A stretch of DNA of 64,000 bases, from contig OZ244829.1 of the NCBI GenBank assembly GCA_965220415.1, forward strand, positions 984,717 to 1,048,716. The letters run 5' to 3'. Positions 29,937 through 64,000 of this stretch are shown piece by piece (the stretch's first letter is position 1; each line of letters begins with the position of its first letter). The translations under genes and the position numbers were made by a program. This DNA is from Candidatus Poribacteria bacterium. Its GTDB lineage: Bacteria; Poribacteria; WGA-4E; JAJDTR01. The notes below the pieces were generated by a model that was not told where the DNA came from, made no database searches, and saw only the letters and a program-made list of their open reading frames with translations.

Positions 29937-30453
29937 GGTATACCCCCTTTGATTTGGAGATTGTCTATTGAACTAGGACATTTAAGATTGAACTTTGGTG
30001 GACAACGTAACCCCGAAAGCTGTGCATTTAGTCTACTTCCGGCGCCTGTTTTGACCGGTGCAAGCTATGTAATACCATTTCGCGTGAATAATGGCGCATA
30101 TGCGGTCTCAATAATCTCGTTTATTTACCTCGTAGGCGGAGATCAGGCGAACGAATAGTGAGTGCGATAGAGATCCCACAGATACGCGACAGACAAATAT
30201 AAAAATGCGAAAAAACTTCCTATAAATGACCAAAAGTGCTTTGCTATTGATTATTCAAACAGGCTCTTAAGCCTACCCCCGTTGCAGGTAATGTGGACAG
30301 CGAAGTCATCGGTCTAGAACGGATGCACGACTACGGCTAGACACCCTCCCAACCATTACGTGACGCCCTGGGCGCTGCCGAGGGTTTCAATGACTCATCC
30401 CGTCGCATTGCCCACACTATCAGGATTCGTAGTTCAAAAGGCTATCCTGCATA

Positions 30454-31440
30454 CTATCGGACGTGCGACGCACTTTTCTTAAGCCTACCCCAAATCTCGA
30501 CTGTTTTGGAAGCGCGGGACACACTTAATCCTACCGGCCTAAAGTCGGGCTCGTCATCGTTCACATCACGAACTTTGCTGAGTTGCTCAAGATATTTTCC
30601 GTCTGCGGTCATCAAGTGAATCTTTCTGCCGAAGGGAATACCTGCCTTAGAGACTACATATGCGATCGTCCCCCCATCGGGAGACCACGTCGGGCGTGAA
30701 TGATCTTCGTTATTGTGTGTAAGCCTCACCGGATTTTTGCCATTCGCTCCCATCACGAAGATGTGCCTGAATCCTTTGTGCGAGGCATCGTATGCAATCC
30801 GCTGTCCGTCGGGAGAAAACGAAGGGTTCGATTTACCCGTTAAATCGTGCGTTAACCTTTCAAGCCCCTGTCCGTCAATGCCCATCACGTAAATTTCGAT
30901 GCCTTCATCATTCCTAGATACGAATGCAATCTTTCCCCCATCCGGAGACCATGATGGCTGCATCGTTCGGTCTTCAAACCTTACACGATTTTGTCCATTA
31001 GCATCCATCACCTCGATATGATCTAACCCATCGTGGACGGTGAATGCAATCTTACCCCCATCGGGAGACCAGTCAGGATCCGCCTTCGTTGCCGGCCCAT
31101 CTGTCAGTTCAATCTGATTCTTACCATCGGCGTCCATGACGCAAATCTGATATCCGCCGGATCGACGGGAAACGAATGCAATCTTCGTCCCGTCAGGCGA
31201 CCAATCCGGTTCCCTGTCGTCCACTGGATGGTTTGACAAGTTTTCCCGGTTTCCTCCATCGGCGTCCATTACATAGATTTCATAGTTGTCAAATACCAGA
31301 TTTGAAAAAACAATCCGGGACCCCTGTGCGGCGAGTCCTCCTATAAACCACCGTTCCCCACTTAACAGCATCATGGTTAACCCGATACACGACACAAGTA
31401 TGCGCCGCAATCGCATTTTTTCCTCCTTGTTTGTGCCCAA
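30454..31440 (-). CDS. Secreted PD40/TolB-like WD40 β-propeller protein with conserved C-terminal tail ...TVEIWGRLKK
   Basis: Repeats of DWSPDGTKIAFVS...YVMDADG type. Signal peptide, probably starting at internal MRLRR. Shared tail. Confidence 0.7.
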   Translation of the reverse strand: MGTNKEEKMRLRRILVSCIGLTMMLLSGERWFIGGLAAQGSRIVFSNLVFDNYEIYVMDADGGNRENLSNHPVDDREPDWSPDGTKIAFVSRRSGGYQICVMDADGKNQIELTDGPATKADPDWSPDGGKIAFTVHDGLDHIEVMDANGQNRVRFEDRTMQPSWSPDGGKIAFVSRNDEGIEIYVMGIDGQGLERLTHDLTGKSNPSFSPDGQRIAYDASHKGFRHIFVMGANGKNPVRLTHNNEDHSRPTWSPDGGTIAYVVSKAGIPFGRKIHLMTADGKYLEQLSKVRDVNDDEPDFRPVGLSVSRASKTVEIWGRLKKSASHVR

Positions 31441-31568
31441 AATGAACAGTAAGGTAACCGGTTTTGAGTGCGTGCTCAGGTACCGTTTGTACGCGCTCCC
31501 AGTCCTTGCGCTATGCTCTCGGCACTGGCGATATTTTCAATCCCTGTTTTCTAGCCCCATTGACATCA

Positions 31569-32579
31569 TCAGGGCTTCCCGGTGCGTTTGAGATCTCCCC
31601 AAGATGTCGGCGACTTTCCGTTTGGGCTGACTGCAAACGCACCAGCAGCAAACAACCAGGAAGGAAGTATGTTATCAACACCGGGAGGAGTTCTCGTGAG
31701 TTTGACCGGGTTGCTCCCGTCTGTGTCCATCACATAAATATTATAATCTCCATCACGGGTTGACGCAAAGGCGATTTTTGTACCATCCGGCGAATAGGCT
31801 GGAAACCTGTTGCTACCCTCCTCCGTAAGCCTTTCTAAGTTTTCCCCTTCAGCGGTAATCGCGTAAATCTGATAATCCAGGCCTGGATTGAAGAGGTGCT
31901 GCGAGTGAAAAGCAATCTTGCTTCCATCTGGCGACCAAATAGGGTGCTGATTTTTCGTTAGGTCGGTATCGCCAGTGAGATTGCGCCTTTCCTTTCCATC
32001 CGCATTCATCACGAAAATATGCTCTGGAGTAAACAAGTCGCCATCACGGGCGGATACAAACGCAATCTTGCTTCCATCTGGCGACCAACTCGGTGAACTA
32101 TCCCTCCACTTGTGTTTTGTCAAATTTATCGGGTTATTTCCATTCTCGTCCATCGCATAGATTTCCAAGTTGCCAACGACCGCACGGAAAGATGAAAAGG
32201 CAATCCTCTTGCCATCCGGCGACCAACTAGGGTGGATTTCAACAAAATTGTCATGGGTAAGTCTTACCACGTTATTGCCATCGCTGTCCATCACATAAAG
32301 GTCATGTGTAACGCCGCGTTCTGATGTGAACACAATCCTTCTCCCATCCGGCGAGCAAGCGGGAGAGTAATCGTATGCCGGGTGGTCGGTGAGTTGGAGG
32401 AGATTGTTTCCGTTTTGGTCCATGGAGTAGATGTCCCAGTTGCCAATCCAGTCGCCGTCGTGGTTTGATTGAAAGACGATTCTCGGTTCGAATGTCTGTG
32501 CTGTGCTGTCCGAAACAACCATTAACGCCAGTAACAATAGAAACATGCGTCTACTCAATAATGGGCTGATTTTATTCAC
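31569..32579 (-). CDS. Secreted PD40/TolB-like β-propeller protein with conserved C-terminal tail ...SPTSWGDLKR
   Basis: PD40 repeats (SWSPDGKRIAFSS, YVMDSDGNN). Signal peptide. Shared tail. Confidence 0.7.
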   Translation of the reverse strand: MNKISPLLSRRMFLLLLALMVVSDSTAQTFEPRIVFQSNHDGDWIGNWDIYSMDQNGNNLLQLTDHPAYDYSPACSPDGRRIVFTSERGVTHDLYVMDSDGNNVVRLTHDNFVEIHPSWSPDGKRIAFSSFRAVVGNLEIYAMDENGNNPINLTKHKWRDSSPSWSPDGSKIAFVSARDGDLFTPEHIFVMNADGKERRNLTGDTDLTKNQHPIWSPDGSKIAFHSQHLFNPGLDYQIYAITAEGENLERLTEEGSNRFPAYSPDGTKIAFASTRDGDYNIYVMDTDGSNPVKLTRTPPGVDNILPSWLFAAGAFAVSPNGKSPTSWGDLKRTGKP

Positions 32580-33407
32580 CGGTCATCTTCTCCTTTTTCG
32601 GGTTCTATAACTTCTAGAGAATTCTCTAACCTAAGTTGCCACGTTTGTAGCACGAGGAATCTCTATCGCGCTGCTTTTTCAGTCGCTTGATCTGTTAGAT
32701 TGTGCTTGTGATGCGCAAACTGACAGATCACCTGGACGGACAGTGGGGGCGATAGAGATCCCTCTCCAGGTCGGAACCTCCTTACTTGCATTAGACACTT
32801 ATGGCGTAAACCTCTCACCGCATATCGTCTCAATTTACCAGAGACGAAACCGAATCAAACGACTTTTCAATGAAACTCTTACGCCTACCCTAGGTGCGGG
32901 TAGTGTTGGCGGCGAAGTCACTGGCCTAGAACGGGTGCACGACTGCGTTTAGACGCCCTCCCAACCATTACGTGACACCCACGGCGCTGCCGAGGGTGTC
33001 AATGACCCGCCCCATAGGGATCAAGTTAAGCGTTTTAGGGTGCAAGTCACGCAGCGTCAATGTCTTGAACTGTTGATCTCCATGTAGACGTGAGCGAGGG
33101 AATACCAGTTCATTCACTGATGGGTGCGCCACAAAAGATGACTCATGGCGCTGGTTTCCGCAGGTGCCGGTGCGGTTGGAAAGGGATCTCTATCGCACTC
33201 ATTATCCATTCGCTTGATCGCACCTACCGTGTGGGGGATGATAGAGATTTCCTCCCCATCCTATGGGACTAAGTTAAGGGTTTTGCGTCGGAGAACACCA
33301 CCGATACTAGACGAAATCCCTTAAGTCGATCCCAATGGGGTGTCAATGACCCGCCCCCGCATTGTCCCCATTATCAGGCTTCGTAGTTCAAAAGGCAATC
33401 GCGCAAA

Positions 33408-34376
33408 CTATGGGCGGTTGAGCTCGACTTTCTTCAGCTTGCCCCAAGTTGTGCTCGTTCTGGAAGCGGCGGAAACGGCTAGTCCTGTGGGGCGAAAGTG
33501 GGGCTCATAATCCCCACCATTGTTGGCATCGCTAAGTTGCTTAATATATTGTCCATCGGCGGTCATCAAGTGAATCGTTCCTATGAGGCGAAAATTACGT
33601 GCCGACACATAGGCGATCGTCCGTCCATCAGGAGACCATGCGGGCAGCCAATTATTCTGTGTACTGTGCGTAAGCCTCTTGCTCTTTTTACCATCCGCCC
33701 TCATCACATAGATTTGAAAATAAAGAGACTCTTCGTCCATGCCCCAGTATACAATCCGTCCCCCGTCGGGAGACCATGATGGCCTGCCTTTAACCCGTAA
33801 ATCATGCGTCAACCTTTTGCGGCCCCGTTTGTTCGCGCCTATCACGTAAACTTCTTCCACCCCATCTGTCAAGGATACATATGCAATCCTTTTCCCATCC
33901 GGAGACCATGACGGCTGATAAGCGTGGTGTTCAAGCTTCACACGATTTTTTCCATCAGCATCCATCACGGCGATATGAACAATCTTTTTCCCATCTGTAC
34001 TAGAGGAGAATGCTATCTTTTTCCCGTCGGGAGACCACGCCGGATAATCGTCCTTTACCGTGTCTGTGAGCCTAATCGGATTCTTTCCATCGGCGTCCAT
34101 TAGGTAGATCTGATTGAACCCGCCATTTCGGTTGGAAACGAACGCAATCTTCGTCCCGTCGGGAGACCACGCTGGACGGTAGTTGCCTGCTTGATTTGCC
34201 GTTAATCTTCTATGGTTTGTCCCGTCTCTGTCCATCAAATAAATCTGCGAATTCCCATCTCTAGTCGAAGTGAATACAATCGTGGCGAGTGCGCTTTTTA
34301 ACCACAGTTCTTCACTCGTCAAACAGACGCACAGTCCTGCAAACAGTAGACATCTAGGTATCAGTTTGAATCGCAT
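33408..34376 (-). CDS. Secreted PD40/TolB-like β-propeller protein with conserved C-terminal tail ...TSTTWGKLKK
   Basis: PD40 repeats (AWSPDGTKIAFVSNRNG, YLMDADGKN). Signal peptide. Shared tail. Confidence 0.7.
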   Translation of the reverse strand: MRFKLIPRCLLFAGLCVCLTSEELWLKSALATIVFTSTRDGNSQIYLMDRDGTNHRRLTANQAGNYRPAWSPDGTKIAFVSNRNGGFNQIYLMDADGKNPIRLTDTVKDDYPAWSPDGKKIAFSSSTDGKKIVHIAVMDADGKNRVKLEHHAYQPSWSPDGKRIAYVSLTDGVEEVYVIGANKRGRKRLTHDLRVKGRPSWSPDGGRIVYWGMDEESLYFQIYVMRADGKKSKRLTHSTQNNWLPAWSPDGRTIAYVSARNFRLIGTIHLMTADGQYIKQLSDANNGGDYEPHFRPTGLAVSAASRTSTTWGKLKKVELNRP

Positions 34377-34738
34377 TTTGCTCCCTCCTAGGTTATAACT
34401 GTTTAGTCCATTGATTTCTAGGGGCGATCGTTATGATTTTAGACAACCTTTTTCGCGAAGTTTTGGCGAACACCGCGCAGATACCCGTTTTTCTGGCTTA
34501 TAGTAGCATCAAGCGACTGGATAAGGAGCGCGATAGCTAATCCCCGGCGATAGTCCATCCCGCTCGCTGTTCACTCCGTTGATCTCTTTTTTCTTAAAGA
34601 CTAGGTTTCTTCCCTTATTCCTAGTGGTTGCAAGATGCGGAATAGTCGCCTCATGACTTGCAACTAATCACGTACAATCAAGGTAATCTCATGAATCACA
34701 GTTCAGAGAAGTTAACTGCCACCGACCAAGCGCACCCC

Positions 34739-35689
34739 TCACCGGAGGCTGAGCGCGGTATTCTTCATCCTGCCCCAAATTGTAATCTGGCGACCTTCCG
34801 GCGAAACCGAGAGTTCTCCCGGATATAGCCAATCCGGCTCGGCATTAGAGAACGCGGGATCACGTGGCAAAGCGTCGACATCGCCGTTAGTTACATCCAC
34901 CGTGTAAATCCCAACAATTCCAGGATCCCTTCCAAAAGAGTGAAACGCGATGGATCCACTGTCCGGTGACCATGTGGGGTGTTCTTCCGTAACATGCTCC
35001 GTGAGTTGCCTCGGATTCTTTCCGTCGCTATCCACCACCCAAATCACGTTATCGCCCACATACGCGATGCGCTTCCCGTCGTGTGACCATGATGGCAAAC
35101 GTTTTCGCACAAAGTCATGCGTTAACTGCATTCGATTTCGTCCGTCGACATCCATTACGTAAAGTTGAGCCCCATTACCATTTCTAAAGGAGATGAATGC
35201 TATTCGTTTTCCATCGGGCGACCACGACGGATGGAAGCCTCTCCTAGAAAATACCCTCTTGTTGTTCCCATCCGCATCCATCACAGTAATCCCACCGTGG
35301 GTGTCGTACACTATTTTTGTGCCGTCTGGCGACCAGTCCGGATAAACGTCATTCAACCCGTCCGTCAGTCTAATCGGGTTCTTCCCGTCGGCGTCGATCA
35401 CCCAGATTTGCTTGCGATCTTTGTTTACATTGTTTCTATTGGAAACAAAGGCAATCTTTTTGCCGTCGGGAGACCATGCCGGATATTCGTCCCTTGCTGA
35501 ATTTACCGTTACTCTTCTATGGTTACTCCCGTCGCCATCCATGACACAAATTTCCAAATTCCCGTCACGCGGAGAGGCGAAGGCTATCTTGGTTCTGCGA
35601 GAGGCGTAACCGATTTCCGCAAGTTGCATCTGGATAAACAGGGAGATGACAAGCACTGTCCCCGCCAGTTGTCTAGCGTTGAATGACAT
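34739..35689 (-). CDS. Secreted PD40/TolB-like β-propeller protein with conserved C-terminal tail ...QITIWGRMKN
   Basis: PD40 repeats (AWSPDGKKIAFVSNR, DWSPDGTKIVY). Signal peptide. Shared tail. Confidence 0.7.
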   Translation of the reverse strand: MSFNARQLAGTVLVISLFIQMQLAEIGYASRRTKIAFASPRDGNLEICVMDGDGSNHRRVTVNSARDEYPAWSPDGKKIAFVSNRNNVNKDRKQIWVIDADGKNPIRLTDGLNDVYPDWSPDGTKIVYDTHGGITVMDADGNNKRVFSRRGFHPSWSPDGKRIAFISFRNGNGAQLYVMDVDGRNRMQLTHDFVRKRLPSWSHDGKRIAYVGDNVIWVVDSDGKNPRQLTEHVTEEHPTWSPDSGSIAFHSFGRDPGIVGIYTVDVTNGDVDALPRDPAFSNAEPDWLYPGELSVSPEGRQITIWGRMKNTALSLR

Positions 35690-35699
35690 TTTTTCCTCC

Positions 35700-36497
35700 T
35701 CTTTTGAATATATACCGTGCGCTGTCAGAAATTGCGCTTTTCAAGATTTTAGGCTTGCTTCACCGATTGTAGAGACAGCACCAAGCGGACGGATTAGAAT
35801 GGGGTAACGTCGGCAGTTTCCACCTGTGGGATCCCTATCGCGCTCATTATCCATTCGCTTGATTCACTCTGGGGCTTTGCTGTAGGTCGAATCAGTTTCT
35901 ATACACCTTCCGCCCCTCTGGGGCTCTCAAGTAACACTCCACATTGCACTCCTCTGGAGTGCGGAAATTTGGACATATCGTATTCTATTGACATTTCGAT
36001 CCTCTGGATCGAGGAAAGGGACTCCGACCAGAAAGTGTTACTTGCTGAATGAATTATTCCGACAGGGATAATGGAGCGCTACCAAGATTTAATTAGGTCG
36101 CGATTCGGAGATTGCGGGATTTCTATCGCAGTCACTATTCGTTCCTTTGATCCTACAAAATAAGCAATTCTCAGCCGCCTGGAGTATAAGCTGATGTTTC
36201 AAGGGAGATTAAGCGAGCGATTAGCGATCAAGTGACTGGAAAGGGGCGCGATAGTGAATCCCGTGCTATAGGGGTCCCACCTAAAGTCCGTAGGCAGGAA
36301 CTAAGGGAGTGAATTATGACCGATCAACCGAGTGGATAGCGAGGGATCAAAGGAGCGAATAGCGATCAACCGACTGATTAGGGAGGGCGATAGAAAATCC
36401 CCTGTGATAGCCAATCCTGATACTAAATCCCGCGCGATAGTGAATCCCGATAGAATCCCAGTATGATAGAGATTCGCTGCTCACCATCCATTCGGTA
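35700..36497. repeat. Intergenic repeat cluster: multiple direct and inverted copies/fragments of the GGGATCTCTATCGC...CATTCGCTTGATCGCACC unit (repeat A)
   Basis: At least 8 GATAG(N)AATCCC fragments in both orientations between 36110 and 36480. Full unit at 35828-35870. Irregular spacing. Confidence 0.6.
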
Positions 36498-37336: not shown

Positions 37337-37505
37337 TTGTTTAGTCCATCGGTCTGGATTTACCAATCCAGACCGAGCGGGGCAGGGAACACGCCGAGTA
37401 GCGCAGTACAATGCTAATTCCGGCTAACCGGGGGCTTACATGCCCAGACCGGACGTGCGACGAACTGCAATACTACGAACCAAACGATGCACTAAACGGT
37501 TACGT
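37337..37505 (-). promoter_or_regulatory. Repeat C (copy 1): conserved ~170-nt 5'-UTR element with a perfect hairpin, immediately upstream of the LamG-tail gene
   Basis: About 88% identical to 42522-42690, which sits in the same position upstream of PhyH gene 41538-42485. Hairpin CGGTCTGGATT-ggtaa-ATCCAGACCG lies about 45 nt 5' of the RBS. Confidence 0.5.
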
Positions 37506-37845
37506 GAATTGAAATTAACCGCCAAACGCCTGCTTCCACTCTATCATCACTGTCGGAGCGATCAAATGAGCGAATATATCAAACGAGTGAATAACGAGTG
37601 ATCAAGGGAACGGTTAGTGACCGCGATAGAGATTCCATAGTAAATCCTCATACGATAGAGATCGCCCTCCTGTTCCCAACTTCCTGTCGTGGATTGGAGG
37701 AATCTCTACGGGATTTCTATCAGGATCCACTATCGCACTCATTATCCATTCGCTTGATCGTTCCAACAGAAAACGTGCAATGGATAGTGCTACCACAAAC
37801 GGAGTAGCACACGTCCTTACGTAACGCAAGTGGCTATACTCTGCG

Positions 37846-37995
37846 TTGGGCATTATTGCGCTTTTTTCCCAGTGATAATTGTTTCTAATAGGACTTACGT
37901 AGCACCAGAAGGTCGGGAATCGGAGTTCCTTCGTACAAGGGTCGCGACCTGGAGATCGCTCCTACAGAAGGCGCAATTTCTGACGGCGCGGAGTA
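37846..37995. repeat. Repeat B copy 2
   Basis: See 26482-26645. Confidence 0.55.
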
Positions 37996-42521: not shown

Positions 42522-42690
42522 TGTTTAGTCCATCGGTCTGGATTTGCCAATTCAGACCGAGCGGGGGCAGGGAACGCGCCGAGTAGGGAAGTACAATGCC
42601 AATTCCAGCTAATCGGGGGCATACATGCCCAGACCGGTCGTGCGACGAACTGTAATACTGCGAACCAAACGATGCACTAAACAGTTACGG
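42522..42690 (-). promoter_or_regulatory. Repeat C (copy 2) 5'-UTR element upstream of PhyH gene
   Basis: See 37337-37505. Confidence 0.5.
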
Positions 42691-42835: not shown

Positions 42836-44830
42836 ATGGACACGATAATACCAACGTTAGGCAGATATTTCAGTGATAAACTGCGGCTCGTGTTTGCCGT
42901 AATGTTAATCATTATGATCGGGATGTGGTGCACCAATGTAAAAGACACCCGGCCCGTGATTCATACTGAAACCGAAACCTTCATGACGTTCTACGGCAAC
43001 CCAACGGGCGGTTTCTGGAGCGAGGTCGCGAAATTTTTTGAACCTACCCCTACCGACTGGGATAACTATCAGGCGCGAGAACTGAGTTATGTCTTTGAGT
43101 ATGTTGACGCTCACATGGTGATACTGCTCAACAAAATCCCTTTCTTTTCGTACGGCTTTCGCAGCATTTCGCAAATCGCCTTCGTTATTCTTACCACAAT
43201 TGTACTGTATTTCATTATTCGAGAGTTGCTGCCGACGTTTCGACGAACATCGTGCGCGGCGCTGGCGATGCTGTTTCCACTTTCACCCCAGCTTCTTGTG
43301 ATGCACCGCGTGTATTTCCGATGCGGTAAGATTATGGCGGCGTTCTGGGCAGCGCTCTGGATATTCTATCTGATTCGCTGGCTAAAACCGACCCACAAGC
43401 CACGAGGTTTAGTCCCCTACATTCTACTGAGTTTGGGCGCCTTTATGTCATTTATCACGGACAAGCAGAACGTAATGATTGGTTTGTGGCTGATTGGATT
43501 GAGCCTTTTGATAACAGTCATTCGTCGCCGCCATGGAGGTGCATTCCGCCACCTAATACATTTTGCAGTTGCGTTCTGCGTAGCTTTCGGCTTCTATCTC
43601 TGCTGGGACTATCTGTTGTGTCCATACATCATTAATGCCGTCCGGGGGCATCCTCCTTTTCGAGGTTGGTCGTCATTGAGCTTCTTCCTGCTGCACGACC
43701 AAGCCTCATACATGCGAGGTATTTGGAACGGCTTTAAGTTGACCGTACTTCAGCTTCAGTTAGCGTTTGGCAATATCTGGGATGGCTCTTTCCTGTCTCG
43801 GGGGTTTGCGCTGGCTTCATACATCCTTATTACAATCTCGGCAATAAAGAAAACTCCGGGCACCTCCGCCAATGCCAATGAAAATTCACGGCAAGGCTTA
43901 GCGGATCGTGTCGCGCTCGTATTAATGCTAATAACTGCCTTCGTTTTCTGTGTCTTTATGATAATGCTTCTTTATATGCGTCACACCCCGCTTGCCTGGG
44001 CAGACATTTGGAGAGGTGGGTACTATTACCAAAGCGCCACTCTTATTCTCATCATTGGACTTCTGATTGTCTTCTCGCTACTCAGTCGTCGAAACAGGTC
44101 TAAGGCATTTGAGACGGTTATGGTATGTGCTGTTTTTCTGATGTGCATGGCGAACTACTTCAGTCTTCGCACGACTAGGGACCACGGCGATCACGGTCAC
44201 ATGAAGGATCAAGTCAAACTGAATCAAAAATTCGACCAAGAGATTCGATCAAAACAGGTGACCGAGGATTCGCGGTTTCTAATGAAATACATTTTCGCAC
44301 CGGCTAGTGAGCGTCACGCGCTATATGTCGCGAGACCAAGACGTGGAGACGGCGTCAATCTAAAGATATTGAAGAACGATGAACAGATTTGGCCAGAAGA
44401 CGGCTGGACATATTGTAAAGACAGTGCAGACAGACAACATCACGATTTCGAGGTGGAGGTCAGTTCGGGCGATAAGATATTTTTCCACGTGAACATGGTC
44501 AATGGCACGCCGCATGATAGTACCTATTGGGATCCGACGATAAGGTATGAAGATGGAACCGTCTACCAAGCTTCAAAAGGATTTAGCGGCACCCAAGGGA
44601 AAAACGGGTGGCATTACCAATACGAGGAGGGCGGAAATTACGCGAATCTGATTTACGCAAAACCCTATAAGACTTGGAAACATGAAGACCCTGAGCGGAG
44701 GGAGCCTTCGCTGAACTCTACCAAGCAACACCCGGGACACGGAATTGACTGTGTCCGTGTGTTTGTCGTACCGAAAGCCGGGACCGTACGCATAACCGGT
44801 GCGCCGGTATGCGTTGGCACCCCTTACTAA
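42836..44830 (+). CDS. Hypothetical polytopic membrane protein with about 220-aa C-terminal soluble domain (possible GT-C-like fold; family not recognised)
   Basis: 664 aa, about 11 TM helices. Conserved N-terminal module shared with the paralog at 63561+. Confidence 0.45.
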   Translation: MDTIIPTLGRYFSDKLRLVFAVMLIIMIGMWCTNVKDTRPVIHTETETFMTFYGNPTGGFWSEVAKFFEPTPTDWDNYQARELSYVFEYVDAHMVILLNKIPFFSYGFRSISQIAFVILTTIVLYFIIRELLPTFRRTSCAALAMLFPLSPQLLVMHRVYFRCGKIMAAFWAALWIFYLIRWLKPTHKPRGLVPYILLSLGAFMSFITDKQNVMIGLWLIGLSLLITVIRRRHGGAFRHLIHFAVAFCVAFGFYLCWDYLLCPYIINAVRGHPPFRGWSSLSFFLLHDQASYMRGIWNGFKLTVLQLQLAFGNIWDGSFLSRGFALASYILITISAIKKTPGTSANANENSRQGLADRVALVLMLITAFVFCVFMIMLLYMRHTPLAWADIWRGGYYYQSATLILIIGLLIVFSLLSRRNRSKAFETVMVCAVFLMCMANYFSLRTTRDHGDHGHMKDQVKLNQKFDQEIRSKQVTEDSRFLMKYIFAPASERHALYVARPRRGDGVNLKILKNDEQIWPEDGWTYCKDSADRQHHDFEVEVSSGDKIFFHVNMVNGTPHDSTYWDPTIRYEDGTVYQASKGFSGTQGKNGWHYQYEEGGNYANLIYAKPYKTWKHEDPERREPSLNSTKQHPGHGIDCVRVFVVPKAGTVRITGAPVCVGTPY

Positions 44831-44917: not shown

Positions 44918-45039
44918 GTAGGATTGGAAGGATGGAAGAGCGGAAGGTTGGAAGATTTCTTTTCACGCCATTCTCAATCCTCGGATACGAAAGTCTCGGA
45001 ACTTAATGGATGCATAAGAACCTGCTGGATTTGCCAATA
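44918..45039. repeat. Repeat E copy 1 (~125 bp)
   Basis: About 95% identical to 47028-47157. Copy 2 ends in the hairpin CTGCTGGATTtgccaATCCAGCAG; copy 1 is truncated. Confidence 0.55.
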
Positions 45040-45806
45040 TGGGTTTAACGGAACGCGCGATGGCAAGCGGGCCCCGGGTCTCGTTTACAGTGACGCCGTC
45101 GAAATTAGAGCGGATTTTTTCAACAAGCTCTGAAATTGCGCTTGAAGCCTTGCCGGGCGTGGCTCGAAGCCGTGTGCGGCACACTTCGCTAAAGTTCGCT
45201 AAAGTCCGCGCACATATTTCACCCCACTTTTTTGAGGAACACCTGGATAGCCGGTTAGAAAGTAATGATGCGTCTACAAATTTGCTGTGCTCAATATGTT
45301 TCCACATACGGTCATCTCTTGTCACAATGAACGCTTAGATCCTCGTTTTTCGGAGCGTCGATTTAAGCGGCGTGTTAGCATTTTCTGAAATGGAGAATTC
45401 CTTTGCCGGAGCGGGTTCTCAGGAATCGTAATACTAACAAAATGCTAACAGAAAAATAAAGTTCCGCCGCCATGACGACTGGTCTGTTACAATATACCAT
45501 ATACGTGTTAAGTTGTCAATCTATACTTGACGCTGATGAAAATTGCGTGTTTTCAAGCGTCTGGCGGTAGGTGCGGTTGGAAAGGGATCTCTATCGCGTT
45601 CACTATTCGTTCACTTGATCGCACCTACAGGGAACGCATGTCGCGACCTGGAGATCGCTCCTACAAAAGACGCAACTTCTGACAGCTTGGAAAGATGTCT
45701 ACTCATATTCAAATCCTCTTTGATTATCAAGATTGACCGGGGGAGCGTTTGAACACGCTTAATAACGACAATTACCTCCATCGAACGATGGTCAATAATG
45801 AGGTTG

Positions 45807-47027: not shown

Positions 47028-47157
47028 GTAGGATTGGAAGGATGGAAGTGGGGAAGGTTGGAAGATTTCTTTTCACACCATTCTCAATCCTCCGATACGA
47101 AAGACTCGGAACTTAATGGATGCATAAGAACCTGCTGGATTTGCCAATCCAGCAGGA
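47028..47157. repeat. Repeat E copy 2
   Basis: See 44918-45039. Confidence 0.55.
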
Positions 47158-47201: not shown

Positions 47202-48179
47202 TCAAATAAAACTCTTGTAGTCGAAATCTTCCAAGTATTGCCACGCGCGGCTTCGGATTTCGTTACGCTCTGCCTCCGAAAGTTCCGCTGCGGTAGCGCG
47301 ATTCGCGGCAGTGGTCGCTTGACGAATCGTGCCCCACGGATAAACCTCTCCGAGTTCAATACCATTGAAGGTAGCAGTTTTCAGTGATTCGGAAGAATAA
47401 CAACCGAGTTTTTCGCACACCGTTCCCAGAGCTTCCGACGGGTTATCCATCACATCCTCCGCACGAACGATATGCACGCGCTCAGGGTATTTCTCACGGA
47501 AGAACAGTGCGTGATATTGATTCACCGTCCAGCCAAGCATGTAGTTCGCAAGAGACAACGGCACGGGACGCTTCTTGGTGTCGGCATAAGCTGACCACGG
47601 GTTTCGCACAATGTGCAACAAGTGTGCGTCAGGGAAATCTTGAAGAATCTTCTCGGTATCAATCACAATGATTGGACTGTAACCGACGTAAAAGATTTCC
47701 TTCCCGGTGCGCCGGTAATCTTTCCAAGCGTCAAAGGTGGCTCGAAAAAAGTTGGCGACATTGTATGCGCGTGAGCGCCCGGTTTCTTTGGCGTGGGTGC
47801 AATAGCGGTCACATCGCTCGTCATCCGAGAAATCAAAGGAGACATGTCGGAATTTGCTCACATGAGGCGTCCGCGCTCGAACTTTGCACTCCTCGTCAAT
47901 AATTGATTTGTAGTCTTGGAAAGGGGTGGCATCCAAGGCAAAGAGGGGCCAACGGTATTTTACGGGGAACATTGAGGTGAGATGGTCAACTACCAACTTC
48001 GTCCCCAACTGCGACTCGAAGGGATAAACGAACATCTGGGGATGACCGTCAAGCAGCCTATGGGTTACGTTCCCTCCATTTTCGTACATTGCGCTGAGCA
48101 TCAATAAACGGAAAGACTGTGGCGAGTGGCTAGCGGAGAGTGGGGAGTTGGAATCAACAATCTTTTGCGATTCTTGCAT
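47202..48179 (-). CDS. Putative sulfotransferase-family protein
   Basis: 325 aa. Pattern consistent with a PAPS-binding 5'-PSB-like region near the N-terminus and 3'-PB-like HIVRNPWSAYAD. Confidence 0.45.
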   Translation of the reverse strand: MQESQKIVDSNSPLSASHSPQSFRLLMLSAMYENGGNVTHRLLDGHPQMFVYPFESQLGTKLVVDHLTSMFPVKYRWPLFALDATPFQDYKSIIDEECKVRARTPHVSKFRHVSFDFSDDERCDRYCTHAKETGRSRAYNVANFFRATFDAWKDYRRTGKEIFYVGYSPIIVIDTEKILQDFPDAHLLHIVRNPWSAYADTKKRPVPLSLANYMLGWTVNQYHALFFREKYPERVHIVRAEDVMDNPSEALGTVCEKLGCYSSESLKTATFNGIELGEVYPWGTIRQATTAANRATAAELSEAERNEIRSRAWQYLEDFDYKSFI

Positions 48180-48185
48180 TATTCA

Positions 48186-49142
48186 TCATTCTCCTCTGCT
48201 ACTGAACGCAGATCCGCGTTTCCCATTTTTGTGCCAGTTTAGCATTTGGCGAAATCCCTCCTCGAATGTGTGCCGCGGCTGCCAACCCAATGCTTTCTCA
48301 ATGTTTCGATTGTCCGCAACCCACCTGTCCGTGTCCCACCGTCGAGACGGCATTGAACCCCACACCGGTTCAACTGTGATTCCCATGGTTCGCCGTGCAA
48401 CTTCCACAACTTCGCGCAGCGTCGTCTGAATCCCCGTGCCGACATTGTATATCGCCCCCGGTTCTTGACCGGGGGTTTTTGCGGCGAGAATATAGGCGTC
48501 AAATACATCGTCAATATAGACAAAATCGTGGGCGGTCTCGGGACTGACCAGCGGCGGTAACTTCCCCTCCAAACCCAGTGTGATGAGTTTGGGCAATAAA
48601 CGGTTCGGGGATTCCAAGGGACCATAAACCGAATAGAGTCGCAACGTGGGAATGTGAACGCCTTGACTCTGCGCCGTGTAACGGCAGAATAGACTAGCGG
48701 ACGCCTTGGTCACCGCATAATGGCTATTCGGCTCCAGCCATTCCGTTTCGGAAGGGGCACTATGTTTAAACCCGTATTCCGACGATGATCCCGTATTCAC
48801 GAACGCCTGAAACCCGACATTGAGACATGCCTCAACCAAATTGACTGTCCCGACGATATTCGTCTCGACCATCCGGTGACAATCGTTTTGTGACGCAGTT
48901 CCGCCATACGCGGCAAGGTGAAAAATCCAATCCGGACGGATTTTGCCCACAATGTGAATCAGGGAATCTTTGTCACCCAAATCTACCGTGTGTAGACGCA
49001 GATTGGAACCTATGTCATTGAGGCGCCAAGAGGTGTACCCCTGACGAACCAACAGGTTCACCTCATGTCCTTCGTGCAACAAGCGCCTAGCTAAGTTTGC
49101 ACCGACAAAACCTGTTCCGCCGGTGATAATGACACGAGCCAT
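48186..49142 (-). CDS. NAD-dependent epimerase/dehydratase (extended SDR; UDP-sugar 4-epimerase/4,6-dehydratase-like)
   Basis: GGTGFVGANL Rossmann motif; YAVTKAS (YxxxK). Confidence 0.75.
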   Translation of the reverse strand: MARVIITGGTGFVGANLARRLLHEGHEVNLLVRQGYTSWRLNDIGSNLRLHTVDLGDKDSLIHIVGKIRPDWIFHLAAYGGTASQNDCHRMVETNIVGTVNLVEACLNVGFQAFVNTGSSSEYGFKHSAPSETEWLEPNSHYAVTKASASLFCRYTAQSQGVHIPTLRLYSVYGPLESPNRLLPKLITLGLEGKLPPLVSPETAHDFVYIDDVFDAYILAAKTPGQEPGAIYNVGTGIQTTLREVVEVARRTMGITVEPVWGSMPSRRWDTDRWVADNRNIEKALGWQPRHTFEEGFRQMLNWHKNGKRGSAFSSRGE

Positions 49143-49450
49143 AGAAACAGTGAAAAGCAGTGGCCAGTGGTTAGTGGTCAGTGGTCAGTGTCCAGTAAAG
49201 ACTTTTGGAAAGTGTTTAGTGGCTAGTGATTAGTGACTAGCAAAAATCTTAAAGCCACAAGACGTGCAATGAATTGCACTACTACGAACCTTCAAGCAGT
49301 AGTTAATGGCTGACAAGGGGCGCCTGCAAGGCGTAACCCTTCAGACACATCCCGAAAGATCGCCTAAACTCGTAAGCGGTTTTCTACGCCGGTGCAATAA
49401 ATCAGTAGACTAAACAGTTACGACTGTTGTTTACTTGGACTATTGGTCGC

Positions 49451-50611
49451 TCACTTGGTTTTGAAACTATAAAAGAGCGCTTTTTCCCGGCGAATTGCCC
49501 GCTTCGAGCCAATGCGAAAAGGGAAACCGCAAGTTACGTCATTGGGCATCCAATCAAGGGCAAAGACTTGATTTCCATGGAGCCAGATTAAACTGCCGAG
49601 CACTTTACCGGATCCAATGTCTACAGCATGAACACCGCAGACGCTCCGCGCCAAATCCAAACCCGGTGCATACTGACGAAAACGCGGAAGCACACGAGAT
49701 GTGCCGACAAAGGCAATATTTTGATGGAAGGCAAGTCCGCGCGTCCATCCCGGCAGCCGCACAATCGGCTCGAAATCGCCTTCTTCGGCAAAACCAAATT
49801 CACCATACCCGCTATTGTCCAACCATAAGCGCCCATGAGACAAACGCGTCGAATGCGGACGTGTCAAACCGCGCACCACGGGTTCCCGTGTCTTCCCCGA
49901 AAAGATCACGCCCCGCCGGTCTACCGGGTAGTTCAGATGGCCGGGACGTCGGCGAGAAGGTTTTTCACCTGAAGCTGAAAAGTAAGAGGTCTCCAAGTTC
50001 GACCCGGGGGCTATCGAGTTTAACTGAAGGTAATTTTGTTCAAAACCTCGACCATCTCCTGTCTCCACGCAACGGGGCCACCACACCCGTTGATAACCGC
50101 CGTTCTCGCGTAATCGCACCACCGAATTTTCGCCGACCGCATTGGCGTACAAATCCCCGCTGATTATAGCCAAATCGTGCAGATAGAGACATCCCGGATA
50201 AAATCGTGAGCGAATCGGGACAAGTGGATTGCCGGCTACCCCCCGACCTTTGATGTCGCGCCGGTTGAGCCTACCGGCAACTGGGGACAGGTCGAAAACC
50301 TGATTTGGATTCCGCGTAGAGGCGATGTGAACCGTCCAAGAACTTCGATTCACGACGAGTCCGGAAGGATGAGGCAACGGCATATAGGAAATCGCCGGCA
50401 CGCGTTCAGCAGCGTGTACTGCCATCACCAAGTGCTCATATTCTCTGGTCACGAGCAGCGTGATACCGCTCTCGGCTAGGATTCCCCACCAGTCGCCATG
50501 CGTAGTGTGCCGTAATAATTTGGAGTCTATCTTCGCGGCATCACCCCATTGGCTGACGACTTCAGCCGGGTCGCGCAAGATCAACTCGAGCGTGGACTCC
50601 ATGATTTCCAA
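49451..50611 (-). CDS. Conserved hypothetical protein (TIGR03032/DUF4915-like, a family I recall as associated with glycosyltransferase/sulfotransferase loci)
   Basis: 386 aa. Assignment is from memory of the family and is low confidence. Overlaps the upstream GT2 by 31 nt. Confidence 0.3.
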   Translation of the reverse strand: MEIMESTLELILRDPAEVVSQWGDAAKIDSKLLRHTTHGDWWGILAESGITLLVTREYEHLVMAVHAAERVPAISYMPLPHPSGLVVNRSSWTVHIASTRNPNQVFDLSPVAGRLNRRDIKGRGVAGNPLVPIRSRFYPGCLYLHDLAIISGDLYANAVGENSVVRLRENGGYQRVWWPRCVETGDGRGFEQNYLQLNSIAPGSNLETSYFSASGEKPSRRRPGHLNYPVDRRGVIFSGKTREPVVRGLTRPHSTRLSHGRLWLDNSGYGEFGFAEEGDFEPIVRLPGWTRGLAFHQNIAFVGTSRVLPRFRQYAPGLDLARSVCGVHAVDIGSGKVLGSLIWLHGNQVFALDWMPNDVTCGFPFRIGSKRAIRREKALFYSFKTK

Positions 50612-51285: not shown

Positions 51286-51932
51286 CGAGAATCTACTTTC
51301 AGATACGGAAGAAGCAGTTCCCGCAAGTTGTGATGTAATTGGAAGAGATGTGCCTTGACCGTGCCAATTGACCGCCCCATTTTGATTCCAATTTCCTTCA
51401 ACGGTAGTTCCTCGCGATACCTCAAAATAAAAACCTCTCTTTGCTTGGGAGTCAATTCCATTACGGCACCCTGCAGATATATGCGGAATTCTTCATTTTC
51501 AACTGCCTTTGAGGGGGCTAACAAGTGACGATTGGCTTCGTGAGGGTAGAACTCTTCATCGGATACGGGATTGTCGCATAGTACGCTGTGTCTCGACCGT
51601 CGTCGTATGAAATCTATGCAGCGATTTATTGTAATGCGGTAGATCCAACTGTAGAACTGAGATGTTCTCTTGAAATTCCCAAGCCCCTGATATGCCTTGA
51701 GAAAAACGTCCTGCGTTATATCAAGAGCATCTTCCCGATTTGAAATAATTGAGCGAATAACGCCGTAAATGCGGTCATAGTAGCGCAGATACAACAAATC
51801 GAAAACTTCCGAGTCTCCTGCCTGAAAGCGTTCAATGAGTTGGACGTCCGGTCGATTAGCCACCATTGAGGCTAAACATCTGTGAGTGGTACCAGTAACA
51901 TTACACGATTCGTTCTGCTTGCCGCTCTCCAT
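51282..51932 (-). CDS. ECF-subfamily RNA polymerase sigma-70 factor
   Basis: σ2 region DITQDVFLKAY...FYSWIYRITINRCIDFIRRR and σ4 region LTPKQREVFILRY...IGTVKAHL. Start ATG overlaps the transketolase-C stop (TAATG). The ORF-track extension to 52061 is probably artefactual. Confidence 0.7.
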   Translation of the reverse strand: MESGKQNESCNVTGTTHRCLASMVANRPDVQLIERFQAGDSEVFDLLYLRYYDRIYGVIRSIISNREDALDITQDVFLKAYQGLGNFKRTSQFYSWIYRITINRCIDFIRRRSRHSVLCDNPVSDEEFYPHEANRHLLAPSKAVENEEFRIYLQGAVMELTPKQREVFILRYREELPLKEIGIKMGRSIGTVKAHLFQLHHNLRELLLPYLKVDSR

Positions 51933-52891
51933 TACGCTATGCCCTCGACTGCCTTTTTCACCAGTGCCTCGCTTGAAAGTCCATGGATGTGACGCAAATA
52001 GTCGGTCCCACCGGATACGCCATCCAACACTCTTTCGATGCCGCACCTGACAACTCGACATCCTATTCCGTGCTCGGCAATAATCTCTGACACTACCGAA
52101 CCAAGACCGCCAGCCCGATAATGGTTTTCAACCGTCATTGCAACCGAGAAGCAAGGCAAAACGTCCACCAGATCGTCAATCGGACCGGGGTTGAGACTTG
52201 AGACCACTATTACCGTGCATTCTATGCCCATTCCAGACAACGCGTTGGCAGCCTTCGTGACCTCACTCGTCACGCTCCCCATCGTGATAATCAAGAGGTC
52301 GGAACCTTTGCGGATAAGTTGGGGGCGTCCAAGTGCGAAACGCCCATCCAACCCGGGGATTGTGGTCTTGTCATCCTTGCCGAGGCGATAGTAAACAGGC
52401 CCCGGCATATCCCAGGTTTCCAACAGCGCAGCGCGAGTCTGCAGGTGGTCAGCCGGTGCGACAACAGTCATCCCCGGCTGTGTCCGCATTAAGGCGACAT
52501 CTTCAAGCGCCCAGTGAGTCATCCCTGCCGTGCCGTATTCGAATCCGCCTCCGACACCCACGATTCGCACTGGCAACCGATGCAAAATGGGACCGTTGCG
52601 TATAAACTCGTAAGGTCGAATCGCCGCAAAGGTCGCGATGGAATAGAGGAAAGGAATATAACCCGCCTCGGCGAGTCCTGTTCCCACTCCAACCATATTC
52701 TGTTCAGCTACGCCGAGGTTAAAAAAGCGATTGTGACGTGAATCCGAGCGATTCGAGAATTTTTCAGCAAACGACTCAAGAACCGTATAGCCCAAATCCC
52801 CGGTTAAGAGCAAAACCCGTTCATCTTGGCCAGCTAGCTTGAGAAGCGTTTCAACAAATGCATGCCTCATAAACCCAGTGATTAGTGCCAA
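51932..52891 (-). CDS. Transketolase, C-terminal subunit (pyrimidine-binding + C-terminal domains)
   Basis: LLTGDLG...FFNLGVAEQNMVGVGTGLA typical of split transketolase TktB. Likely start at MRHAF (52867). Confidence 0.75.
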   Translation of the reverse strand: MALITGFMRHAFVETLLKLAGQDERVLLLTGDLGYTVLESFAEKFSNRSDSRHNRFFNLGVAEQNMVGVGTGLAEAGYIPFLYSIATFAAIRPYEFIRNGPILHRLPVRIVGVGGGFEYGTAGMTHWALEDVALMRTQPGMTVVAPADHLQTRAALLETWDMPGPVYYRLGKDDKTTIPGLDGRFALGRPQLIRKGSDLLIITMGSVTSEVTKAANALSGMGIECTVIVVSSLNPGPIDDLVDVLPCFSVAMTVENHYRAGGLGSVVSEIIAEHGIGCRVVRCGIERVLDGVSGGTDYLRHIHGLSSEALVKKAVEGIA

Positions 52892-52936
52892 GTGGAGAGT
52901 GATGAGTTAAACGCTCCCGTTTCTTCTCTCCACTCG

Positions 52937-53797
52937 TCACTTACCACTCTCCACTTCCTCTACAGCTTGTTGGTATTCAGTGTCGGACATTGGCAAATAG
53001 TGCCACTTGATTTGATTTTCCATGTAGGGGACTCCTTTACCAAAAGTGGTGCGGGCAACTAATATATGAGGACAGCCGGAAATTGTGTCGAGTTTTTCAA
53101 TTGTCGCCGTCATCGCGCCGACGTTATGACCATCGACCTCGTGCACATCCCAGCCAAAAGCTTTCCACTTTTCTGATATAGGGGAGAGAGACAACACATC
53201 GTCAGTATAACCGAATGCCTGTTGACCGTTTAGATCCACGATTGCAATGAGATTGGAAAGTCGATGGTGTGCCGCAAACATTACCGATTCCCAAATCGAT
53301 CCCTCATTACACTCGGCATCGCTGATTAGTACAAAGACACGACGGACGCAGCCTTCAAGTCGCGCCGCCAATGCGGCGCCCGCGCCAATCGCCAATCCGT
53401 GCCCCAATGAGCCTGTAGAGAAATCAACGCCCGGGATGGTGTGCTCGGGGTGAACACCTAGGCAGTGGCGAGTGCAGAGTAGCGAGTGATGAGTTGAATC
53501 TTCTCTGCTTTCACTCGCCGCCGGATCCATGCAATACGTTTCGAGGGTTTCTTCGGTGAGCCATCCCTTCAGATATACCGCGGCGTAAAGCGCCATCGCC
53601 GCGTGTCCTTTGGAGAGGATAAAACGATCGCGGTTGGAGGCATCGGGATAGGCAATCTGTAATACATTTTCGTAAAGCGCGGCAATGATGTCGGCAATTG
53701 ACAACGCCGATCCGATATGTCCCACGTTTGCCCGTTTTGCCATTTCGAGGATGAATTGCCTAATCCGAATCGATGATACCTCTTTTACCGTTTTCAA
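52937..53797 (-). CDS. Transketolase, N-terminal (TPP-binding) subunit, carrying an in-frame ~60-bp palindromic insertion
   Basis: GHIGSALSIADIIAALY...SKGHAAMALYA...GSLGHGL...DAECNEGSIWE. Insert encodes SESREDSTHHSLLCTRHC at 53467-53522. Confidence 0.75.
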   Translation of the reverse strand: MKTVKEVSSIRIRQFILEMAKRANVGHIGSALSIADIIAALYENVLQIAYPDASNRDRFILSKGHAAMALYAAVYLKGWLTEETLETYCMDPAASESREDSTHHSLLCTRHCLGVHPEHTIPGVDFSTGSLGHGLAIGAGAALAARLEGCVRRVFVLISDAECNEGSIWESVMFAAHHRLSNLIAIVDLNGQQAFGYTDDVLSLSPISEKWKAFGWDVHEVDGHNVGAMTATIEKLDTISGCPHILVARTTFGKGVPYMENQIKWHYLPMSDTEYQQAVEEVESGK

Positions 53798-63560: not shown

Positions 63561-64000
63561 ATGACTATAGACAGCAAGTCCAAAGAAAACCGCATGGACA
63601 CGATATTAGCGACGTTAATCAAAAAACTCCGTGACAAATCTCAGTTCGTGTTCGCCTTGATGCTAATCATCATGGTGGGGCTATGGTACGCCGGTTTGAA
63701 AAACACGCGGCCCATAATACATTTTGAAACAGAGACGTTTTTGGCGTTCTACGGCAACCCCACCGGCGGGTTTTTGAGCGAGGTCGCGAAGTTTTTTGAC
63801 CCGTCGCCTACGGACTGGGACAACTACCAGGCGCGCGAATTGGGTTATGTGTTCGAGTATATTGATGCTCGAATGGTTATACTCTTAAACAAGATCCCAT
63901 TCTTTTCGTACGGCTTTCGCAGTATCTCTCAAATCTCGTTCGCCATTCTTACCTCGGTCGTGCTGTATTTAATCGCAAGGGAACTGTTCCCCACGTTTCG
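63561..64000 (+). CDS. Paralog of the 42836-44830 membrane protein, 5' portion (continues beyond window)
   Basis: Translation of the first about 140 aa (…RPIIHFETETFLAFYGNPTGGFLSEVAKFFDPSPTDWDNYQARELGYVFEYIDARMVILLNKIPFFSYGFRSISQI…) is about 75% identical to 42836+. Open to window end. Confidence 0.6.
   Translation, partial: MTIDSKSKENRMDTILATLIKKLRDKSQFVFALMLIIMVGLWYAGLKNTRPIIHFETETFLAFYGNPTGGFLSEVAKFFDPSPTDWDNYQARELGYVFEYIDARMVILLNKIPFFSYGFRSISQISFAILTSVVLYLIARELFPTF

Follow-up and report, generated by a model that had tools for sequence, protein, structure and literature searches.

In a 64-kb stretch of Poribacteria DNA (the window, to which all coordinates refer unless a locus is named), the gene tktN (52937..53797, minus strand) codes for the N-terminal thiamine diphosphate (ThDP)-binding subunit of a split enzyme of the transketolase family, a protein of 286 aa. 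It contains an in-frame palindromic insert of 56 bases (53466..53521, minus strand). We consider it most plausible, with a probability of about 0.7, that this insert is a heptamer palindrome of the type that occupies cistron junctions, that a permissive loop of TktN acquired it in a single event, and that it is translated as a passenger. Its upkeep would take place at the level of the DNA, and selection would act only on reading frame and stop codons.

The corresponding history can be outlined as follows. The normal seat of the repeat family would be a cistron junction, with AGTG units lying across one gene's stop and CACT units ending just 5' of the next start. The ancestor of these Poribacteria would have acquired a single copy on one occasion, in a loop four residues ahead of the histidine of the GHP motif. 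Units of 7 nucleotides (nt) would be gained and lost through slippage, and the arms may be corrected against each other within the palindrome. Strains would exchange whole cassettes by short-tract homologous recombination, with about 20 nt of the preceding codons being carried along. Only those variants that break the frame or contain a stop codon would be purged by selection on TktN.

The insert in tktN and its repeat family

The tktN product matches the Pfam family PF00456 (Transketolase_N) with E=2.7e-37, and its best solved relative is PDB entry 6yak, described as 'N-terminal component of the split chain transketolase' (E=2.3e-56). The gene tktC (51932..52870, minus strand) codes for the C-terminal subunit, which comprises the pyrimidine-binding and the C-terminal domain (PF02779, Transket_pyr; PF02780, Transketolase_C). 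Transketolase models of NCBIfam match both products. TktN thus has the Transketolase_N domain alone and a separate tktC gene follows, which is the arrangement of a split transketolase; the synteny of the two genes is kept in 13 loci. As judged from orthologue starts, tktC likely begins with the ATG at 52870 (MRHAFVETLL...).

The insert encodes approximately residues P92-H111 within ...TYC-MDPAASESREDSTHHSLLCTRHC-LGVHPE. Its sense strand consists of GGCGAGTGAAAGCAGAGAAGATTCA followed by five heptamers in ACT phase (ACTCATC ACTCGCT ACTCTGC ACTCGCC ACTGCCT), and its plus strand reads as five units in a 7-nt phase (AGTGGCG AGTGCAG AGTAGCG AGTGATG AGTTGAA). In a strict-period scan, a run of five AGT cores spaced by 7 nt was detected at 53464-53494. 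The arm GGCGAGTG (53466-53473) pairs with CACTCGCC (53511-53518), and CAGAG pairs with CTCTG. Folded as plus-strand RNA, the insert reaches -31.4 kcal/mol (z=-3.46), and only one of 200 shuffled sequences was as stable; for the sense strand, the values are -24.1 kcal/mol and z about -2.4 to -2.55.

Compared to 6yak and human TKT, from which the insert is absent, 17 residues within positions 89-112 of TktN remain without a partner in HMMER alignments. The distance from a conserved Cys to LGVHPE is 23 residues in the window versus five in insert-free homologues (P0023-P0026, P0034, P0048 and P0119 served as reference), which corresponds to an excess of 18 aa. Four residues downstream of the insert follows the invariant GHP histidine, which we take to be the active-site residue numbered His100 in E. 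coli and His110 in the human enzyme. No other heptamer copy in the window is internal to an ORF (open reading frame). Inspection of the junctions (...GGATCCGGCG/GCGAGTG...CACTCGCC/ACTGCCTAGG) revealed no flanking direct repeat of 4 nt or more, that is, no target-site duplication; the age of the insertion could have erased it.

A homologue search over 5.8 billion proteins yielded 22 close homologues (71-94% identity), of which one bears the name Candidatus Poribacteria; an additional locus, L001, stems from a Poribacteria chromosome. All 22 homologues and L001 (the 23 Poribacteria-like orthologues) have extra residues at exactly the same site of TktN, always in frame. Homologues with at most 72% identity, among them sequences named Acidobacteria, Nitrospirota and Binatia, are all devoid of the insert and have five residues between the Cys and LGVHPE. 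By outgroup comparison, the extra loop is a derived, lineage-specific insertion. Because the same site is occupied in all 23 orthologues, the sequences also indicate that the insertion in this genome is not recent, and we infer a single ancestral event. Across the orthologues, the loop varies in length from 18 to 35 residues and the element from 55 to 95 bp. There are at least five lengths and four sequence types, and every variant has a length that is a multiple of three and is free of stop codons in the tktN frame. The DNA of the orthologues was gathered for 13 loci, one protein at a time. These loci represent one syntenic region seen repeatedly, mostly in metagenome assemblies; because of this synteny, counts of sites in the Poribacteria loci are not independent.

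The insert belongs to a repeat family in which an (AGTGNNN)n arm faces an (NNNCACT)n arm with a period of 7 nt. Defining a strict run as at least three AGTG or CACT cores spaced by 7 nt, four runs were found in the window, compared to 0.06 expected from shuffled sequences. Four to five AGTG units each are located at 49159-49190, 49211-49235 and 52877-52901, and four CACT units at 52931-52955. Ten Poribacteria loci (240 kb) contain 28 strict runs, versus none in 79 non-Poribacteria tkt loci (1.3 Mb). Most of the Poribacteria copies lie over stop codons or just 5' of start codons: an ORF starts at most 40 nt after a CACT run in 12 of 28 cases versus 2 of 28 controls, although these sites are syntenic and hence non-independent. 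Within the 240 kb, the only sites inside ORFs are the tktN insert and overlaps with the C-terminal end of tktN. The family displays the strict period, the conserved core, the minimum of three units and the dispersed, lineage-restricted and boundary-located occurrence of tandem heptanucleotide repeats.

A member of this family forms the hairpin between tktN and tktC (52871..52955, minus strand; fold z=-4.7 to -5.0). Its AGTG heptamers provide the last codons and the stop of tktN (GAA GTG GAG AGT GGT AAG TGA, that is, EVESGK and the stop codon), and its CACT heptamers stop short of the tktC ATG by 8 nt. Over the Poribacteria loci, the distance from such CACT arrays to the starts of tktC and the epimerase gene ranges from a few nt to 16 nt. 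The loop sequence AGAGAAGAAACGGGAGCGTTTAACTCATCACTC is common to this hairpin and the insert, and the loop AGAGAAGA...TTTAACTCATCACTC is also found in the insert. The 12-mer GAGTGATGAGTT occurs at exactly two sites in the window, which are these two elements; with up to two mismatches, it has 10 matches versus 4.8 expected. Because the shared 12-mer alone is not significant, a local-alignment test covering the whole window was used instead. The best alignment of the insert was the one with the intercistronic hairpin, which scored 31 compared to a null of 24.3 +/- 1.7 (maximum 29 in 30 shuffles).

Two further arrays, CACT-phased on the sense strand and consisting of five and four units, are located at 49159..49235 (minus strand) and finish 16 nt 5' of the ATG of an epimerase gene (49142). 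Their sequence GTTAGTGGTCAGTG..TCCAGT..AAAGAC matches the 5' arm and the start of the loop of the type-3 insert that other strains have in tktN (see below); for example, the type-3 insert of L089 and window positions 49159-49200 share TAGTGGTCAGTGTCCAGT...AAAGAC. An earlier reading of the same DNA, made without database searches (the sequence-only reading), had located the insertion at 53467-53522, which is right to within 1-3 nt. The extra residues that it had described are present, the encoding DNA is a real hairpin, its likeness to the hairpin between the two tkt genes is borne out by the alignment, and the AGTG-type repeats noticed near 49200 are real and have a 7-nt period.

Insert types and cassette exchange

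At least four types of insert can be distinguished. T1 is SESREDSTHHSLLCTRHC-like, T2 reads SEEWRVQSKKDLTHHS..., T3 reads GQCPVTSKDSGFSGHRSQATGNC, and in T4 the 5' part of T1 is joined to T3. All types are in frame, stop-free and built from heptamers. They have common outer edges (CC[G/A]GTGG... on the left and ...ACTGCCT on the right) and differ in their interiors.

The flanks of P0007 (T1), P0016 (T3) and P0018 (T4) are 96-97% identical over 238 residues, and yet the three proteins contain three insert types. Types also differ between P0013 (T2) and P0020 (T3), whose flanks are 97% identical, and between P0011 (T2) and P0022 (long T3), with 98% identity in the flanks. The reverse is found for P0016 and P0020, which are 97% identical in the insert and only 79% identical in the flanks. 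At the level of DNA, L089 and L213 are 73-80% identical in the flanks, compared to 92-100% over about 120-180 nt that comprise the insert plus about 20 nt of codons ahead of it; for L213 and L085, the flanks are 92-100% identical and the insert 56-72%. These alignments show that the insert type is independent of flank phylogeny and that whole cassettes are exchanged between strains. Because tkt codons are inside the co-transferred tract, the donor must be another tktN allele. This suggests homologous recombination over short tracts as opposed to transposition from another genomic location. Judged from these sequences, mobility within the ORF consists in the replacement of cassettes between alleles by short-tract recombination; no transposition was seen. 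Moreover, no link of the heptamer family to a transposase was noticed, and a sequence relation to the insertion sequence (IS) transposase genes that are present in L086 and L090 was not searched for.

Within T1 inserts, the proportion of nonsynonymous differences (pN) is about equal to that of synonymous differences (pS), with values of 0.13/0.14 and 0.19/0.26 (69 nt, five sequences); in the flanks, pN/pS is about 0.1-0.2. A model calculated with AlphaFold2 from a 30-sequence alignment had a predicted template modelling score (pTM) of 0.81. Residues 94-115, which are located between confident helices, had a per-residue confidence (pLDDT) below 50, whereas the remaining parts were modelled with confidence. 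This fits a flexible, unconserved and tolerated loop. Because pN is about equal to pS and disorder is predicted, the insert looks neutral for the protein, that is, like passenger DNA and not like a selected loop. Peptides of the EDSTHHSLLCTR type, if detected, would prove that the insert is translated.

In distant pairs of orthologues, pS is 0.14 in the insert versus 0.5-0.6 in the flanks. The ACT cores are invariant across inserts and the spacers variable. These patterns indicate that a constraint at the nucleotide level or a homogenising process acts on the insert. The hairpin is strong in the window, in L001 (z=-3.4), L086, L089 and L090, and is no better than shuffled sequences in L081, L083/L084 (z=+0.5 for L083) and L088.

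The intercistronic hairpin coincides with a change in sequence identity. BLASTN alignments of the window to L083 and L081 break exactly at the tktN/tktC hairpin (52896-52944). The identity to L083 is 88% upstream of the hairpin (tktN) and 97% downstream of it (tktC onward, 7.2 kb). Because of this jump, the alignments suggest that the hairpin is a recombination breakpoint.

In a sub-lineage comprising P0011, P0013, P0014, P0020 and P0022, the tktN stop is lost and TktN has a length of 342-384 aa (L085 9157-10185; L213 2339-3370). In these proteins, the intercistronic element is translated into about 40 additional C-terminal residues (EEKQEDFDLTHHSPLITDD...), and this extension runs across the start of tktC. 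Another loop of the same proteins contains a second insertion, SQASLDGKSS, with a length of about 10 aa.

Alternative explanations and known repeat systems

Several observations weigh against a passenger palindrome. The insert was never lost in the 23 orthologues, which is unexpected for a neutral and deletion-prone palindrome and hints at a retained role. The conservation of its DNA beyond that of synonymous sites in the flanks of distant pairs could be due to selection on an RNA or DNA function and not to homogenisation. The dN/dS figures of the insert come from five sequences of 69 nt, and the family counts from sampled loci and not from a genome-wide census. Some of the swaps could be chimeras of metagenome assemblies, yet L089 and L086 are on contigs of 0.65 Mb and 3.3 Mb. 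Finally, the four copies of the window lie within 5.4 kb of one cluster, which fits local regulation equally well as a selfish repeat.

The main alternative is that the hairpin, or the CACU-phased heptamers of the mRNA, would be a selected cis element such as a regulator-binding array, an RNase or stability site or a ribosome pause. The copy in the ORF would then be retained for its regulatory function, with the peptide as a by-product. The window copies, which form a single cluster, all have the CACT phase on the sense strand, and three of them end just 5' of start codons without an obvious Shine-Dalgarno sequence. All orthologues have kept the insert, its nucleotides are more conserved than synonymous sites of the flanks, and its ACT cores do not vary. 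In addition, TAACTGA heptamers, which occur at the same positions in Beggiatoaceae, have been proposed as binding sites of translational regulators (PMC4679880). On the other hand, the decay of the hairpin to non-significance in L081, L083/L084 and L088 weakens the case for a consistently selected RNA structure, types of quite different sequence freely replace one another, and no start codon follows the copy inside the ORF. No binding protein is known, and a search of Rfam yielded no RNA family that would account for the hairpins. A selected cis element, which would not be exclusive of a captured passenger, therefore appears unlikely to us.

The position of the insert, four residues ahead of the invariant GHP histidine, its constant presence in frame and its richness in His and Cys (THHSLLCTRHC; QCPV...TGHC) would also suit a lineage-specific functional loop beside the active site, for example one that binds a metal or a partner, with the palindrome being incidental. 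Such a loop is quite improbable given that pN is about equal to pS, that types with 30-40% identity swap in near-identical backgrounds and that the pLDDT is below 50. Moreover, His, Cys, Ser, Thr and Leu result directly from CACT/AGTG heptamers read in three frames, and the same DNA motifs occur in non-coding positions. It is even less plausible to assume that the hairpin remains untranslated due to programmed translational bypassing or to removal from the mRNA. Bypass elements, with T4 gene 60 and the 'byp' elements of yeast mitochondria as examples, do have the form of a stable hairpin within an ORF. However, all insert variants keep the frame and lack stops, a constraint that a skipped segment would not carry, and neither a take-off/landing codon pair nor an adjacent stop codon is present; a bypass was rejected for the former reason. 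A chance palindrome or an assembly artefact can be regarded as excluded. The lone shared 12-mer would indeed not be significant in a search space of 128 kb (when all 12-mers of the insert are considered, about 0.3 would be expected by our estimate), but the fold z-scores, the enrichment of 7-nt runs and the best-in-window alignment to the intergenic hairpin speak against chance. An artefact is contradicted by more than 20 independent assemblies in which the same site of tktN is occupied, and some of these contigs measure hundreds of kilobases up to megabases.

The sequence-only reading had proposed a mobile insertion resembling the Rickettsia palindromic elements (RPEs). RPEs are palindromic repeats of about 100-150 bp with a conserved encoded peptide, which occur between genes and within the ORFs of unrelated housekeeping enzymes, where they are in frame, translated and tolerated by fold and function (PMC10969869). 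The insert of TktN is likewise palindromic, hairpin-forming, in frame, compatible with its host and located inside a housekeeping enzyme. In contrast to RPEs, which have a family-specific consensus, are confined to Rickettsia and occur in dozens of in-ORF copies per genome, the Poribacteria element measures 55-95 bp, consists of degenerate 7-nt units and thus deviates in size, consensus and peptide conservation, its types being only 30-40% identical. Its site is ancient, cassettes are replaced instead of newly inserted, and there is one internal ORF site in 240 kb. No homology of the insert to Rickettsia RPE sequences was found. Of the earlier proposal, the derived, palindromic and in-frame nature of the insert and its membership in a dispersed family therefore stand; a recent transposition of an RPE or a MITE does not, and the insert also differs from MITEs by its junctions, which on inspection are devoid of a target-site duplication. 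The same reading had reasoned that the element would be a mere lineage-specific loop if lineages lacking the repeat family also carried it. The alignment of orthologues, which it had recommended, confirmed the extra loop in the 23 Poribacteria-like sequences and its absence from the outgroups. The insert-bearing lineages all have the family, and the lineages without the family lack the insert.

By architecture, the closest relatives of the Poribacteria element are tandem heptamers of the STRR/TAACTGA type. TAACTGA repeats have a patchy distribution across phyla, comprising marine Beggiatoaceae, cyanobacteria and some Bacteroidetes (MacGregor 2015, PMC4679880). They resemble the Poribacteria units in their 7-nt period, their ACTG-type core and their location a few nt 5' of starts or over an upstream stop; Shine-Dalgarno sequences are rare there as well, and a minority of copies is inside ORFs, usually near protein ends (PMC4679880). 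They differ in being near-perfect direct repeats, with one inverted case, whose forward orientation contains stops in all frames, whereas the Poribacteria units have variable NNN spacers, often form two complementary arms and are here located in the middle of a conserved enzyme. For cyanobacteria, Elhai and co-workers reportedly described in 2008 the STRR heptamers CCCCAGT, TTGGTCA and CAACAGT with nested small dispersed repeats. These are tandem, dispersed and mostly non-coding heptanucleotides with a CAGT-like core, in which small defined repeats are nested; similarly, a GATCAAGCGA...GCGATAGAGATCC motif is nested in the tkt intergenic heptamer hairpin of L086. The phylum and the unit sequences are different, and we know of no case of cassette swapping within an ORF for cyanobacterial STRRs.

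REP/BIME elements of enterobacteria and MIRUs of mycobacteria are hairpin repeats between the genes of operons, and the ORFs of MIRUs overlap the flanking stop and start. The tktN/tktC copy is intercistronic, too, and overlaps the stop as MIRUs do. In contrast, REP and MIRU elements have no heptamer substructure and are not typically translated within enzymes, and no link was found here to the RAYT transposases that mobilise REPs (PMC3116915). The heptamers GGGNATC and GGGGA(C/T)T of Xanthomonas and Nostoc are under-represented inside ORFs (Rehm 2015, PMC4692102). Their arrays lie at most 50 bp 3' of stops on the sense strand, or 5' of ORFs in antisense (PMC4692102), which is reminiscent of the Poribacteria copies, but the unit is another one and the proposed G-quadruplex role is not applicable to AGTG/CACT. 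A full-text literature search retrieved no paper that joins Poribacteria with heptamer repeats. The combination of a two-armed palindrome, an internal in-frame position in a conserved enzyme, a cassette-like exchange between strains and a recurrence in a second phylum (see below) appears to be new.

Host enzyme, neighbouring repeats and heptamer arrays in other phyla

The ThDP motif of TktN reads L-I-S-D-A-E-C-N-E-G (53308-53331, residues about 156-163) instead of the usual G-D-G-x-x-x-E-G. According to the alignment of homologues, SDA replaces GDG in the whole TktN clade and in its insert-free outgroups, which is the reason why the enzyme is termed a member of the transketolase family. tktN is surrounded by a cluster of glycosyltransferase, epimerase and sulfotransferase genes. 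Given this neighbourhood, the enzyme may be other than the classical transketolase of the pentose-phosphate pathway.

Degenerate heptamers (CCCCACT CTCCGCT AGCCACT CGCCACA on the sense strand) at 48121..48150 (minus strand) rank second among the window's matches to the insert. They are located within the first 20 codons, or in the 5' leader, of a sulfotransferase ORF (47202..48179), whose orthologue in L087 is 20 aa shorter. A spacer of 308 nt between a DUF4915 gene and the epimerase gene (window 49143-49450, sense = minus; L081 9080-9387; L083 14348-14655) ends in the CACT heptamer arrays. It is 100% identical across the window, L081 and L083, although identity in the adjoining DNA amounts to just 92.7% and 97%, and it is wholly missing from L087 and L089, which have a spacer of 24 nt instead. 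The spacer may represent a conserved non-coding RNA or an insertion that has spread recently. Rfam contains no family matching it; neither the whole window at the gathering threshold nor 48900-49700 at E<=1 gave a match.

A second dense repeat, GATCAAGCGAaTGGATAAtGAGtGCGATAGAGATCCC, has about 18 intergenic copies in the window, in both orientations and never in a real ORF. Examples are located at 1867-1903, 10719-10756, 13737-13773, 20387-20424, 22486-22522, 22554-22590, 24139-24175, 30140-30177, 32656-32692, 33183-33219, 35828-35864, 36116-36152, 37600-37636 and 45584-45620. The variable flanks of this repeat are often mutually complementary and sometimes start with GTAG, several copies are 30-40 nt 5' of an ATG, and in L086 one copy is nested in the heptamer hairpin between the tkt genes. 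The repeat may serve the PD40/Tricorn paralogue family as a promoter or operator motif; alternatively, it may be a REP-like element. Tandem PD40/Tricorn-type beta-propeller paralogues at 29000-35600 account for most families of direct repeats (D1, D2, D5, D8, D9, D11, D14-D17). Furthermore, there are four dispersed repeat pairs of 120-300 nt with 76-96% identity: 26511-26644 / 37862-37995, 37379-37504 / 42564-42689, 44918-45038 / 47028-47148 and 42836-43135 / 63594-63893. The 121-nt pair (44918-45038 / 47028-47148) is also copied in L083.

When metagenomes were scanned for four AGTG units spaced by 7 nt, at least 120 stretches with a GC content of 0.36-0.74 were obtained, and many of those listed are two-armed hairpins. 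Among the matches listed, AGTG runs were located at ORF ends in 61 cases versus 6 controls; this association is partly built in, because AGTGA contains TGA. CACT runs followed by an ORF start were not enriched among the 120 metagenome matches listed (28 versus 31 controls). In ORFs supported by Pfam, in-frame arrays were found in cinA (L167 4090-4230), trpE (L182 4990-5110), carB (L201 500-720) and the genes of a metalloenzyme (L187 1990-2090), a radical-SAM protein (L146 9260-9350) and a TsaD-family protein (L197 440-600). For carB, trpE, cinA and the TsaD-family gene, the array is outside the matched Pfam stretches. The in-ORF flags in the high-GC contigs L131, L137, L143, L206, L208, L193 and L177 were dropped, as their translations indicated spurious antisense ORFs.

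The comparison with a reference was made for carB only. The CarB of L201, whose relatives are named Chloroflexota/Caldilineaceae, has an insertion of 46 aa between the residues corresponding to E. coli CarB 506 and 508, encoded by a strong heptamer hairpin. At this site, Caldilineaceae-like CarB proteins (P0123-P0190) have hypervariable in-frame inserts of 9-76 aa, e.g. RLEIGDWRLGD...SPISNLQSPIS. The units of the carB hairpin are AGTGGAG and GGAGATT/AATCTCC, and GGGGATT-like units occur as well. The hairpin of cinA in L167 is near-perfect and has GAGTGATGAGTTGAA in common with the window insert. It is a tentative and still doubtful idea that heptamer-armed palindromes are recombinogenic 'hairpin cassettes' across phyla, which are seated at cistron junctions and sometimes in enzyme loops, where they would be in frame, hypervariable and exchanged between strains independently of the gene. 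Candidates are tktN of Poribacteria and carB of Caldilineaceae, and possibly the trpE, cinA, tsaB-like and radical-SAM genes of other uncultured bacteria. If this were true, it would imply a machinery that recognises heptamers, be it a nuclease, a recombinase or a repair bias, and it would be a general route from repeat DNA to new and diversified protein loops.

To our knowledge, the colonisation of enzyme genes by in-frame palindromic repeats is textbook material only for the RPEs of Rickettsia. In the uncultured, sponge-symbiotic phylum Poribacteria, an outcome of the RPE type would have been reached by different DNA, namely by palindromic tandem heptamers. There is direct comparative evidence that the evolution of the inserted segment is that of DNA instead of protein and that strains swap it as a cassette; carB of Chloroflexota provides a parallel hypervariable site. 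If the phenomenon is general, gene callers and homology models should expect such loops, and heptamer hairpins would be useful for marking hot spots of recombination in genomes assembled from metagenomes. In that case, there would also be a testable connection between heptanucleotide repeats, whose abundance in bacteria is unexplained, and both recombination and the origin of protein loops.

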